A stretch of DNA of 64,000 nt from Adineta vaga (Eukaryota; Animalia; Rotifera). The stretch is from assembly GCA_021613535.1 (NCBI GenBank), contig CP075497.1, positions 9,176,001 to 9,240,000 on the forward strand. The letters are read 5' to 3'. The position numbers and the translations under genes were made by a program. Shown piece after piece: positions 12,804 to 33,230 of the stretch. Each line of letters begins with the position of its first letter. Position 1 is the stretch's first letter. The notes beneath the pieces are model-generated. The model ran no database searches and was not told where the DNA came from. It saw only the letters and a list, made by a program, of their open reading frames with translations.

Positions 12804-15685
12804 TTTGGTTGGTGAAATGTTCGGTCGTGCGTTAAACAATTCAAGAAAGAACTTATCATTAAACAATTGAAAACATTTCGTATACAAATAGCTGCTCTTA
12901 GTGAAACATGTGTATACGACTCTGGTGTTAAACTAGTTAATGATTATACAATGATTTACTCAGGTTTATCATCTGATAACAAGACCAGACGTGCACATGG
13001 AGTGGAAATCTGCCTTGATCAGACAGCGACAAAGGTTTGAAAGGACTGAGAATCAGAATGGAAAACAATATCTGAAAGAATTTTAAAAATTAGACTCAAA
13101 TGTTCTCAAATTAATATAACTGTTATAGCTGTGTATTCACCGATAAATCCAGCAAATACACAAATGGCTGATGATAGTGAAAAATTCTATGTAGATTTAC
13201 AAGATACCGTAAATAGAATTTCTATTGAAGACATGTTAATCATTGTGGGAGATTTCAATGCCAGAGTAGGAGAAAACAACAACATCAAAATTTACACAAT
13301 TGCATTGGAACATTTACGGTTGATAAGGAAAATCAAAATGGAACAAGATTGATTGATTACTGAGCGATTAACGATTTTATTACTTCAAACACATTTTTCA
13401 AGCATAAATTTATACATCAGACTTCCTGGATGTATCCTGGAACGAAAGTTTGGCATATGCTCGACTATACACTGGTCAACAGAAAATTTAGATCGAGTAT
13501 TGAAGATATAAGAATGCTTAGAAGTGCAGCTGGTGTCCTAGGAACTGATCATCATTTAATGCGTGTTAAAATTAAATTACATTTAAGAAGTCGAAAGAAA
13601 CAGAAGAAAACTAAATATAACATTAGTAAATTTAAAGATGCTAGAGCATCAGAATGATTTCAACGTGATCTTCATGAAACCTTATCTGAAGCATCTGATG
13701 AAACAATTAGTATTGATGAAAAATACTCATTATTCGTGGAACATCTGAAAGTACATGCAGCAAAACATTTCAAATTAAACAACAATACTAATCGAAAGAG
13801 GAAAGAATGGCTTACAGACGAAATATTACAAATCGTTGATCAGAAATCATCAGCTTTCTTAAATTAGCAAAACCATCGCGAAACCAACTTAGAAGTAAAA
13901 ACCAAAAATAGGTACAGACGTCTTAGAAAACTAGCTGAGAAGAAAATTGATGCACGTCAAATTGAATATTGAGATGAAATTTGCGAGGAGATAGAAAATT
14001 CTATTAAACTGAATGATTCAGCAATTGCTTTTTCTATCATAAGACCTTCGCGTGGTGGAAGTAAACGAGTAGAAAATATGCCAATCAAAGATAGGAACGG
14101 AAAACTACTGTTAAATTCAACTGATCGGCTAGAACGATGGCGCGAATACTTTGATGGATTATTTAACGTACTATCAACAGTTGATCAAAAACTTATTGAT
14201 GAAATTCAAATTGGTACATTATCTGAAGAAGAAGCAAAGAGGCAAAATGCTAAACCATCAATAGAAGAAGTAAGAAGAGCATTATCTCAAATGAAATCAA
14301 GAAAAGCACCAGGAAATGATGAAGTAACAGCTGATCTTTTGAAAGCTGGGAGAGAGCCAGTTATTCGTTGGCTCTATGGAATATTTGATGACATATAGAA
14401 AAATGAAGTGATGGTGCAAGATTGGAATTTAGCTATCCTTATCAGATTATACAAGAAAGGAGAAAAATAAATATGTGATAATTATAGAGGAATTTCATTG
14501 TTGAATGTAACTAGTAAAATATTTACTCGTATTCGGAACATGATGGATCATCAACTATTAGAAGCACAATCTGGTTTTCGGACACAAAGATCATCTATTG
14601 ACCAAATATACATATTAAACATTATAATGGAAAAACGCAGGGAATTTAACAAATCATCATTCATGTATTTCATTGACATTACAAAGACTGATGACTCCGT
14701 CAATCGTGATCTTTTGTGGAGAGTATGCCGTAAGTATGGTATTTCAGAAAAACTTGATAATCTATTTAAAATGTTATATAATAACTCAAAGGCAAAAGTA
14801 AGAATTGAAGGTGAATTATCAGATAGTTTCTTGATTGAAACTGGAGTTCAACAAGGTGGAATACCATCACCAATCCTGTTTAACATTTTATTTGATTTTA
14901 TCATTAGAAAAGTTAGAGAAGAGGTTGGTGTTACAGGTGTCAAATTCTCATATGGTAGCAATGATTTCTTTCATGCTAAACGGGAAAGCTATGAAAACTT
15001 TAATATTTTGACATTACTTTATGCTGATGGTCTTGTGGCTATGTGTGAAACAGCATCTGATCTAATAACATTCATTCGTGCGTTTGAAAAAGTGACTTAA
15101 GAATATGGATTGACAATGAGTGTTAAAAAAACATCTATTATGACCTTACAGAAGTTTGCGGAAGATCAAAATCGAAAGATTATAAAACAGAACGAAGTGG
15201 TCTTTACTGATATTGACATCAAAATTCGAAATCAAAAAGTAGAAACTGTTGATTCTTTTACGTACTTAGGCTGCAACATCACCAGAGATCAGAAATCAGA
15301 TAGCGAAATTAATGCAAGATTAACCTAAGCTGCCACTGCATTTAATATGTTGAGACATGTGATATGGAACCGAAAAACCGTCTCAATTAAATCAAGACTA
15401 CGAGTTTTTAGTGCTTGTGTTCTCCCGGTTTTACTCTATGGAAGCGAAACGTGGTCAATTATCGGTCAACATGAACGTAGAATTGCTACGTTTTATATGA
15501 AATGTTTACGTAGAAACAGATTGAGGTGGATCGGACATGCAAACCAGATGGTGAACAGTAATGATGAACCATCAATGGTGAAAAAGATTACATTTTCATA
15601 TTTCCCGGAAGAGAAAAGATCTCGAAACATCGGTATAAGAAAAAGACGGGAAGATAAAATTCAAACATCGCCAATTCTCTACTAA
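12804..15685 (+). pseudogene. Disrupted APE-endonuclease + reverse transcriptase ORF of an RTE-like LINE
   Basis: APE motifs: (W)NVR, ALSET, VYSP, GDFNARVG, LDY, TDH. RT motifs: KAPGND, NYRGISLL, QSGFR, GVQQG..SPILFN, LYADG (degenerate YADD), FTYLG, LLYGSETW, RLRWIGH. Many in-frame stops and frameshifts. Confidence 0.93.
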
Positions 15686-30701: not shown

Positions 30702-31225
30702 TTTATATGAATAGATCAACTAAAAATTTTGATATTTTTTTTTCGTTGTAACAAATTTTTTCTACTACGAAAAGTCAATATGTTTTTCTTTATTATACTT
30801 CATCTGAGTATGTAGTTAACATTATTTTCTTTTCTTTCTTCATGTAATCAAAAACACATAGTTACAACGTTGACAAATAACAGTTCTTTACACAGGTAGT
30901 TTTACCATTACAATGTTGGTTACAATAACACTTGCCTCCTATTTTATCGCTCTCTATCAACAGTACTTATTCTCACTGCATAACTGCTCTAGACATTTAC
31001 ATGCATGTTCATTTGTTAAATAAACAAAGTACTCAATCTATACCTAAGTCCGATATATGTTCACTTTACAGTTTGGCAAATCATATATGATGAAGAGACT
31101 TTGAGCATGTTCAAAATGTACCATATCTTATGGAAATTGGTTTGAGAGATGTGACTTTTGTAGTTTTATTCTCTTTATAAACGGTATTTTCATATAAAAA
31201 AAAATAACAACAAGAACAATAATGA

Positions 31226-31501
31226 TCATCGATCTGGTTCTTCATCCCATGGTCGTTGAATTCGTTTTTGTTCCCATCCATCTAAACTTTGATTTTTAAC
31301 CATGTGTTCATATTCTTCTTCTAATGTTGTTGGTTCAACATAGTCCAGACCTTTTTCTTTGATTTCATCACGTGAATATGTTTTTACATGATGTCGTCGA
31401 CGATCATAACGTACCCATGTTGCACTACGTAATGTTACATAAATAACACCCATTAATGCAATATATGGAAGAAAGTTTTTCACGAAACGATTATTAATCA
31501 T
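31226..31501 (-). CDS. COX16: Cytochrome c oxidase assembly protein COX16
   Basis: MINNRFVKNFLPYIALMGVIYVTLRSATWVRYD..TTLEEEYE..DGWEQKRIQRPWDE matches the COX16 pattern (TM segment, RYD, LE.EYE, RPWE). The first ATG in frame is at 31501. Confidence 0.85.
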   Translation of the reverse strand: MINNRFVKNFLPYIALMGVIYVTLRSATWVRYDRRRHHVKTYSRDEIKEKGLDYVEPTTLEEEYEHMVKNQSLDGWEQKRIQRPWDEEPDR

Positions 31502-31964
31502 AGATTGATCTGTTTTATGTTTAAACAAATGAATTCTTCGATTTCTGCAAGATCTTTTTTTGCAAAGGAATGTAGAGCAAAACCAAAGAGAAGTTGTTTT
31601 TTTAATTGTAAACGTTCGTAAAGATGGCGAGCAAGAATATGATATTCGGCTTGATCTTTTCCAAGAAGTGATTTTATTGAATACACTGGAGATGAATCTT
31701 CGTTTAAATTAACGTCACGACGGACAAGAACCTAGAGAATTATCATCTTGAAATAGATGAATTTGAAATATCTCGTAACTTACTAAACTTCCAACTTTTC
31801 CAAATTGTGTCACCGATATGAAAAGTTTGTTATCGAAATTACTTATAACAAGATCAGTAACGTGATTGTTTAATGTTGTTTGTGCCTAAAGATTAGAAAT
31901 TATTGAAAAATAACAAAGAATTTATTATTCTTACGGTATGTGTTTGTGGAAATTTAGAATCCAT
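31498..31964 (-). CDS. PSMG3: Proteasome assembly chaperone 3 (PAC3), 3 exons
   Basis: MDSKFPQTHT|AQTTLNNHVTDLVISNFDNKLFISVTQFGKVGSL|VLV..PVYSIKSLLGKD..HILARHL. The VTQFGK.G.L and K.LLG.D motifs are characteristic of PAC3. Confidence 0.88.
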
Positions 31965-32584
31965 TATACATGACGAAAGAGAAAAGTTTCGTGTAGGTAA
32001 GTAAGTGATGTATGTATTTAAAATTTAGATAGAAAAAATTGCCAATCCAAAAAGATGATTTATAGATGGTGCTACATACCTTTTCAAAATCTCTTCCAGT
32101 ATAGTGTAACAAAGCAAGGAAATATAATTACATAGTTGGTTATTTCGATAGATACATATGTCTAGATGCAGATGATGAAGTTCTGGAGCATGGTGCTAGT
32201 GATATACCTACTATTCAGTATCTATTGAAATTATCTATCAACACTTAAAAAACACATCTGATGGATGTAGTCGTAAAGTTGATCAACATTATCAAGAAAA
32301 CAATACTATTCCTAATTCTTCTTCCAAAAACAAAATTGAAACGCAAACTATCATCAGCCGCACATAAACGATACAATCAAAACTGTAGTATAAGACATTG
32401 AAGAAAGCATTTACAATTTTGAAATTGTATGTCTAGTCAACACCACCATTATTAATGTTTATTTTCTCTCCTTCGATATACATTTGTTGTTGGTTTTTGA
32501 CTTCCTAACTTTTCAGTACTAATCGTGATACATGTTCAGATTTCTCTGCTATTCGAAAAATAAACAAAACTGATTCTTTTTTTC

Positions 32585-33230
32585 TTATTGTTTATTTATT
32601 TCTACAAGCGTTGTCTTGATGTCAAGAATCTTATCCACAACATCACATTCAATGATTTCTAGAATGACGGACTGTCCTAATTTGAAGACAAAATTCTGAT
32701 AAAGAGGTGGTATTGTTTCACGATGAAATGATGCATTGAAACGACTGTGTATCAAGCAAGCTAAAAGACATCAATAGAAATATGAAAGAAAAAAAACGTT
32801 TTATTTTAATTCAGTTTTTACCAATATGTTTTTTTCCAAGTTTTGATACAATTGCACGAACACGATGACCACGTTCTGGTACAAACAAAACAAAATTAAG
32901 TTTCACAGGTATCCACAATGTTGGATTATCTTGAAATGTTTGTGCAGTATTGGATAGAAAATGAATCTTTCCAATAGCTAATAGAAATCCGTTCAATCTT
33001 ACATAAAACAAAAAAAGAAATCTTTTTTTCAAAAATTTTCTACTCTATAGAATGATTTACTTTTTAGCAAGTTCATTTGAACTTTCTTCAAGTATTTTCT
33101 TAATTCCTGTTTTACTTTTTCCAAGTTGACTGGGTGGTAATGGTAAAAGAATCTTTTGAGATCGATGTTCTAAACATGAATGTTTATCATTTACAAGTGG
33201 TAGAACATCATTTAGTTTATATAAATTCAT
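32585..33230 (-). CDS. POLR1F: RNA polymerase I subunit RPA43
   Basis: LPLPPSQLG..KTGI, LNGFLLA..KI, FVLFVPERG, V.KLGKKHI.CLIH.RFNAS. The 3' end is uncertain: stop at 32585 if unspliced, or a short extra exon near 32516-32548. Confidence 0.82.

Follow-up and report, generated by a model that had tools for sequence, protein, structure and literature searches.

Background

In the ORF35/ORF36 pair of KSHV, translation of ORF36 depends on a uORF that lies over the favourable start of ORF35, as has been proven by mutation (Kronstad et al. 2013, PMC3561293), and the authors give hepatitis B virus C0 as the sole earlier case of such uORF bypass. Dicistrons in which the two frames overlap by 4 nt (CG33649/DNApol-gamma35 and moi/Tgs1), as well as several 1-nt overlaps, have been annotated in Drosophila (Crosby et al. 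2015, PMC4528330 File S1), and no 'uORF' entry occurs in that file. Human bicistronic transcripts have also been described (PMC13303939). Green-algal bicistrons that use leaky scanning have weak ORF1 starts and positive spacers, with medians of 183 and 40 nt (Duenas et al. 2025, PMC11892635), and the TURBS-type pairs of caliciviruses and influenza B overlap as AUGA or UAAUG (PMC10275272, PMC5972666).

Here we analyse a stretch of 64,000 nt from the rotifer Adineta vaga (contig CP075497.1, positions 9,176,001 to 9,240,000; "the window"), in which the stop codon of PSMG3, a gene for a proteasome chaperone, and the start codon of COX16, a gene for a mitochondrial (complex IV) assembly factor, share bases on the minus strand. 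Judged by the three features that were tested, namely a conserved uORF, a strong ORF1 start and an AUG-free path to ORF2, this pair is built like ORF35/ORF36. In both systems a short out-of-frame uORF covers a strong ORF1 start, the position of the uORF is kept while its peptide is not, and ORF2 overlaps the end of ORF1, with 332 nt to be scanned in KSHV and 351 nt here. They differ in that the viral case is mutation-proven, whereas PSMG3-COX16 is a cellular, spliced, animal pair for which bypass is proposed; in the length of the uORF (11 codons in KSHV, 5 here); and in the presence in KSHV of a second uORF, whereas the extra upstream AUGs found at PSMG3-COX16 stand at no fixed place. With the Drosophila dicistrons, whose products are annotated as coming from dicistronic transcripts only, the pair has in common an animal nuclear mRNA, two unrelated ORFs and a 4-nt (or 1-nt) overlap, although other genes in another phylum are concerned. 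The overlap itself is therefore of a kind already known in animals, and its characterisation in the preliminary description of this locus as "bacterial/viral-style" and rare in animals was overstated. The algal bicistrons resemble the pair in their short, AUG-depleted ORF1 and in encoding unrelated proteins, often organelle-targeted; in contrast to them, PSMG3 has a strong start with a uORF over it, and the two ORFs overlap. Among the papers listed by a literature search, in which most subscription papers were outside reach, none dealt with this locus, with bicistrons of bdelloids or with uORF bypass in a cellular gene pair.

Results and discussion

Two genes that share four nucleotides

Once its two short introns are removed, PSMG3 encodes a protein of 121 aa that matches an Adineta vaga entry (P0066), which in turn matches PDB 2z5e (E 1.4e-7). 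The PAC3 family of Pfam (PF10178) is recognised at 31731-31501 with an E-value of 1.2e-10 and 41.9 bits, against a curated cut-off of 21.2, and the COX16 family (PF14138) at 31501-31229 with an E-value of 3e-13 and 50.3 bits, against a cut-off of 27. The minus-strand letters at the junction are ...ATC AAT CT ATG ATT AAT. Thus the 4-nt ATGA overlap reported in the preliminary description stands exactly where it was placed, and Pfam supports both genes (Table 1).

Table 1. Features of the PSMG3-COX16 locus; coordinates refer to the window
Feature	Coordinates	Strand	Remarks
Conserved upstream element	32041..32074	minus	about 75-110 nt before PSMG3 start; aligns in window and in 5 loci with coverage
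uORF, 5 codons, out-of-frame	31954..31971	minus	ATG 31971-31969, TAA 31956-31954
PSMG3 (PAC3) coding exon 1	31935..31964	minus	start context strong: purine -3, G +4
PSMG3 intron 1	31886..31934	minus	49 nt, GT..AG; joint in contigs of X1, X20, X21, X22
PSMG3 exon 2	31784..31885	minus	AUG-free
PSMG3 intron 2	31732..31783	minus	52 nt; contains ATG, unlike exons; joint in X1, X5, X20, X21, X22
PSMG3 exon 3	31498..31731	minus	AUG-free as far as COX16 start; terminal TGA; Pfam PAC3
ATGA stop/start overlap	31498..31501	minus	PSMG3 TGA 31500-31498, COX16 ATG 31501-31499
COX16 CDS	31226..31501	minus	91 aa, intronless; Pfam COX16; start context weak
3' UTR	31141..31225	minus	AATAAA 31170-31165, poly(A) tail near 31150

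Homologs of COX16 numbered 31, and the species-named ones belong to Adineta and Rotaria, which, like the PSMG3 match, marks the window as bdelloid DNA; the window's own COX16, whether read from Met1 or from Met17, was absent from the protein collection searched. The true start is Met1 rather than Met17, as had been proposed, because Met17 is variable (Ile or Val replaces it in 7 of 30 aligned sequences), because conservation extends over residues 1-16 in spite of their position past the PSMG3 stop, and because the Pfam match already begins at residue 11. This has a consequence for annotation. Among the 35 listed COX16 proteins the N-terminus is intact in 26, two are partial, and seven are called from Met17, so that these seven bdelloid sequences lack the conserved first 16 residues.

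A gene model of Rotaria socialis (P0061, 165 aa) has PSMG3 fused to the second half of COX16. No joint of this type was present in the sequencing runs examined, and the fusion is probably a prediction artefact. No longer or fused forms of COX16 were found among 18 candidates of 161-2000 aa, in a search that missed P0061 itself.

Conservation of the overlap, and possible termination-reinitiation

A metagenome scan gave 152 pattern matches, of which seven loci (L001-L007) were confirmed; L007, without upstream DNA, was left out, and the comparison below covers seven loci, i.e. the window and L001-L006. Conservation in relatives, a check that the preliminary description had itself put forward, is found throughout: ATGA stands at the COX16 start in 7/7 loci (the window and all six metagenome loci with upstream DNA), and the PSMG3 stop is the TGA of that ATGA in six of them. 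In the remaining one, L002, the PSMG3 stop comes one codon earlier and gives TAATG, a 1-nt overlap. Identity between loci at third positions ranges from 0.68 to 0.96, and a tree of the loci was unresolved. Linkage of the two genes is also backed, circumstantially, by accession numbers that lie about 20 or less apart for PSMG3 and COX16 in A. steineri, A. ricciae, R. magnacalcarata and R. socialis. Pattern matches in genome contigs (21) and viral contigs (11) yielded no confirmed COX16 relative. Taken together, PSMG3-COX16 is a real and conserved unit that is probably bicistronic.

Such an overlap suggests that ribosomes ending PSMG3 might reinitiate at the overlapping COX16 AUG, and this stop-restart was the mechanism that the preliminary description preferred. 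The two forms in which the overlap is kept, AUGA and UAAUG, are textbook forms of it, and TURBS reinitiation tolerates a weak start context (PMC10275272), such as that of COX16, where the -3 base is a pyrimidine in 6/7 loci. Residue 2 of COX16, moreover, allows an A at +4 in all 26 homologs with an intact N-terminus (Ile 19, Asn 4, Ser 2, Thr 1). Finally, in two pairs of proteins (P0035/P0014 and P0043/P0025) PSMG3 is one residue longer and COX16 one residue shorter, suggesting that the overlap shifted as a unit; this last point is weakened, however, since start and stop share bases and such a shift is automatic. What stands against stop-restart is, first, that UGGGA (TURBS motif 1), already reported missing here, occurs in 0/7 loci within the 110 nt upstream that were searched. 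Second, the loci do not agree in structure over the last 100 nt (z from -0.39 to -2.71, below -2 in two of seven loci). TURBS, moreover, requires no AUG-free ORF1, and stop-restart leaves unexplained both the uORF and the removal of AUGs at sites 120-310 nt upstream, which are described below. As the main route to COX16 we consider it quite improbable. Of the earlier proposal, the shared spliced mRNA is supported by bridging contigs and by the conserved overlap, whereas stop-restart is not the best supported way of translating it, given the conserved uORF and the AUG-free PSMG3, two features that had been missed.

Four other stop/start overlaps between frames of at least 50 codons occur in the window, none of them with an AUG-free upstream frame.

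Spliced contigs across both genes

Eight sequencing runs were examined, runs being treated as RNA where GT..AG joints and a poly(A) end pointed to it. The junction was bridged by a contig of spliced type, without a joint or a listed loose end at that place, in six of the eight (X1, X5, X6, X20, X21 and X22, from five studies). A contig over two genes, however, is not proof that they share a transcript and does not reveal where mRNAs begin, and assembly could have trimmed away an SL branch of 23 nt within exon 3. In four of the bridging runs (X1, X20, X21, X22) both PSMG3 introns were removed and the contigs included the uORF. Of the other two runs, X18 had no joints and was DNA-like, and X10 gave short pieces that did not bridge the junction, one record of depth 2 having at 31488 a loose end of 11 nt that is not SL. 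The poly(A) site is based on a T12 loose end at 31150 in X22, other contigs ending at 31151 and 31141. At the 5' side contigs ended at 32016, 32065, about 32010 (from record length) and 32123. The last of these, from X21, carries a loose end of 20 nt; read as its reverse complement, this opens with the 3'-terminal 11 nt of the rotifer spliced leader (sequence from Table 1 of PMC3795323). Between this SL-like end and 32123 there are 9 nt that are absent from the window, which likely derive from a divergent second allele holding the trans-splice acceptor. In the same region a contig of low depth from X5 stops at 32121, and the DNA-like X18 breaks between 32075 and 32139, with one arm aligned.

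One spliced mRNA with both ORFs is supported, because contigs bridge the junction, because the overlap is conserved, and because no conserved acceptor lies just before COX16, in agreement with the preliminary description, which had seen no good acceptor there. Furthermore, since the PSMG3 stop lies inside the COX16 start, every PSMG3 mRNA must extend into COX16.

One may nevertheless consider that COX16 is translated from a monocistronic mRNA of its own, arising by SL trans-splicing (for example at the exon 3 acceptor or at an AG within exon 3) or from an internal promoter. More than half of bdelloid mRNAs are SL-spliced (cited in PMC1925144). The machinery used in SL-resolved operons exists in this organism (PMC1925144, PMC3795323), and one PSMG3-COX16 contig has an SL-like 5' end. 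AGs are conserved at -34, -52, -148, -154, -196 and -230 relative to COX16, and an SL branch pruned in assembly could have been missed by the contigs. However, among the loose ends listed for the six bridging runs, neither exon 3 nor COX16 had one with SL, nor did contigs break there, and the single SL-like end listed lies upstream of both genes, while at neighbouring genes contigs do stop precisely at acceptor AGs (33628 in X21 and X22, 33252 in X21). The CAG 8 nt before the COX16 ATG, which had been suggested as an SL site, is present in the window only (1/7 loci). The pair also differs from SL-resolved operons in having no spacer, no poly(A) site and no conserved acceptor between its genes; within the COX16 coding sequence, AATAAA or ATTAAA is present in 5/7 loci at varying places, the window having none. 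On balance, we regard a separate COX16 mRNA as unlikely.

A conserved five-codon uORF over the PSMG3 start

The ATG of the uORF lies 7 nt before that of PSMG3, and its stop codon 11 nt into the PSMG3 coding sequence. Both its position and its length are identical in 7/7 loci, while the peptide varies (MYNGF, MYYGF, MHYGF, MCYGS). Of the columns from -28 to -1 five are invariant, and three of these are the ATG of the uORF; identity is 0.55 over the rest of this stretch and 0.55-0.63 across the flanks. At this upstream AUG the -3 base is a purine and the +4 base a pyrimidine. The PSMG3 AUG combines a purine at -3 with a G at +4 in 7/7 loci, and its context is called strong from these two positions. 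The uORF and COX16 share a frame, but a fusion of the two is ruled out by the 6-15 stops between them. L003 has a second upstream AUG in the third frame, 17 nt before the PSMG3 start; by reading, it opens a 14-codon uORF that ends inside PSMG3 exon 1 and that would have the same bypass effect.

Further upstream, the conserved element of Table 1 is probably the core promoter of the PSMG3-COX16 unit, and a promoter of its own fits since the neighbours upstream of PSMG3 differ between species. A CCAAT-like motif shows no enrichment in the window, where it matches 12 times for an expectation of 9.7, and an Rfam search of 31000-32600 gave no match. At the edge of the element there is a start-stop mini-uORF (ATG TAG, 32077-32072, minus strand), whose ATG is missing in the X21 allele (variant at 32075).

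Removal of AUGs from PSMG3

Across its 362 nt, spliced PSMG3 has no ATG in any frame in 7/7 loci, while its introns contain ATGs in five of them. Synonymous resampling produced a mean of 3.0-3.9 ATGs, and the probability of finding none did not exceed 1e-4 in six loci and was 1.1e-3 in L006. ATG-free windows were rare in the control frames, with 0/23 at 360 nt and 1/49 at 230 nt, these controls being 27 unannotated stop-to-stop frames of the window, some of them non-coding or antisense. PSMG3 is AUG-free because its codon choice runs against the bias of the genome. Before a G, its NAY codons (His, Asp, Asn, Tyr) end in C in 27/27 instances, which amount to 4-5 sites and not to 27 events since they are shared by descent, compared with 16/194 in the control frames and 1/41 in COX16. 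All other NAY codons of PSMG3 end in C in 7/128 instances, and 0/13 of the NAY columns without a following G are fixed as C. The signal consists of four NAY-G sites and one Ile-Cys site, common to related loci: His18 is CAC in 6/6 loci where a G follows; codons 50, 54 and 82 end in C before G in 7/7; and codon 112 is ATT before TGT in 7/7. In L006 the codon after His18 has changed to ATT, and the locus is still ATG-free.

The absence of an in-frame Met is by itself uninformative, as 30 of 137 other PAC3 proteins (149 matches, less 12 outside 100-170 aa) are also without an internal Met. The loss in bdelloids of a conserved internal Met was rejected as an explanation: the human structure entry has Met at the PAC3 motif in question, and only 15 of the same 137 proteins do.

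The distribution of the sites bears on the possibility of a separate COX16 mRNA. Exons 1-2 hold one of them, with a probability of no ATG of 0.08 (1.0 in L006), and for exon 3 this probability is about 1e-3. Since the removal is mostly in exon 3, an internal start, or an SL added at the exon 3 acceptor, would fit too: exon 3 would then be AUG-free because it is the 5' UTR of COX16. The exon 2 site and the uORF, however, would have to be left to other causes.

Plain leaky scanning would also account for an AUG-free PSMG3: 40S subunits would skip both the upstream AUG and the PSMG3 AUG and reach COX16, the uORF merely damping PSMG3. Work by Wall in 2005 reportedly described leaky scanning in flies, with AUG-free first cistrons there. 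It is the best-known route for the nuclear bicistrons of green algae (PMC11892635), and AUGs about 10 nt or less apart can raise leakage (PMC3542737). At this locus, however, two AUGs would have to be passed, one of them strong, and the context of the PSMG3 AUG, favourable at both -3 and +4 in every locus, is the opposite of the weak ORF1 context seen in algae. We think it improbable that leaky scanning alone delivers COX16.

A model of uORF bypass

Because the PSMG3 start is strong in all seven loci, a route past it is needed. To the reading that PSMG3 and COX16 are both made from one spliced mRNA by uORF bypass, which is drawn from sequence features, we assign a probability of roughly 0.6. 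Scanning 40S subunits would meet the upstream AUG first, which, given its context, would be partly leaky. Those that skip it would come upon the strong PSMG3 AUG 7 nt on and translate PSMG3. Subunits that use it would reach the uORF stop 11 nt past the PSMG3 AUG, go back to scanning, acquire a new initiator tRNA across 351 AUG-free nt, and initiate at the first AUG that they meet, that of COX16. The uORF would thus act as a divider of ribosomes between the two proteins. In the stretch to be scanned, the strongest 60-nt fold is no more than -10.5 to -13.5 kcal/mol, depending on the locus. The ATGA overlap would then serve chiefly as a compact junction at which the two genes are coupled in mutation, and not as the engine, though a minor share of stop-restart may add to it, since the overlap is conserved and the COX16 start context weak; the competing routes of translation are not mutually exclusive.

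Several points count against uORF bypass. The pyrimidine at -3 of COX16 in 6/7 loci is unexpected if scanning alone finds the COX16 AUG, the model has no need for an exact, conserved overlap, and overlapping uORFs are usually plain repressors (PMC10275272). That the uORF would be required for COX16, and would set the PSMG3:COX16 ratio from one SL-capped mRNA of a gene pair conserved across bdelloid rotifers, is a prediction to which we give about even chances.

If true, this would be a cellular and conserved example, open to easy testing, of a uORF by which translation of a second cistron is made possible; until now such a mechanism has been tied to viruses. It would also be a solution at the level of translation in an animal that possesses SL trans-splicing as well. 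Its signature, AUG-N4-AUG over the first start together with an AUG-free ORF1, could be used in re-reading animal dicistrons that are now ascribed to stop-restart, IRES or leakage.

Neighbouring genes

Upstream of the pair, positions 34720-32588 of the minus strand contain a TRAP-delta (SSR4) gene recognised by Pfam, a 91-aa intronless ORF without clear family (33626-33351) and a third gene that we take to be RPA43-like, its match to SHS2_Rpb7-N being weak (E 0.1). The contigs of these genes are about 40-70 nt apart and include the ends at acceptor AGs mentioned above. The region is a candidate SL-resolved operon, possibly continuing into PSMG3-COX16.

Downstream of COX16, a gene with a weak match to SHIPPO/PG-rich repeats (E 0.0057) is found in the window (30700-29000, minus strand) and in L005 (6230-7650). 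In L001, L002, L004 and L005 there is a conserved coding-like stretch 60-150 nt past the COX16 stop, which is not at that place in the window; it seems to be where a convergent gene of the opposite strand ends, possibly one akin to phosphoglycerate kinase, whose C-terminus it resembles. Elsewhere in the window (13973-15097, plus strand), two frames resemble, by eye, a fragment of a non-LTR retrotransposon reverse transcriptase.
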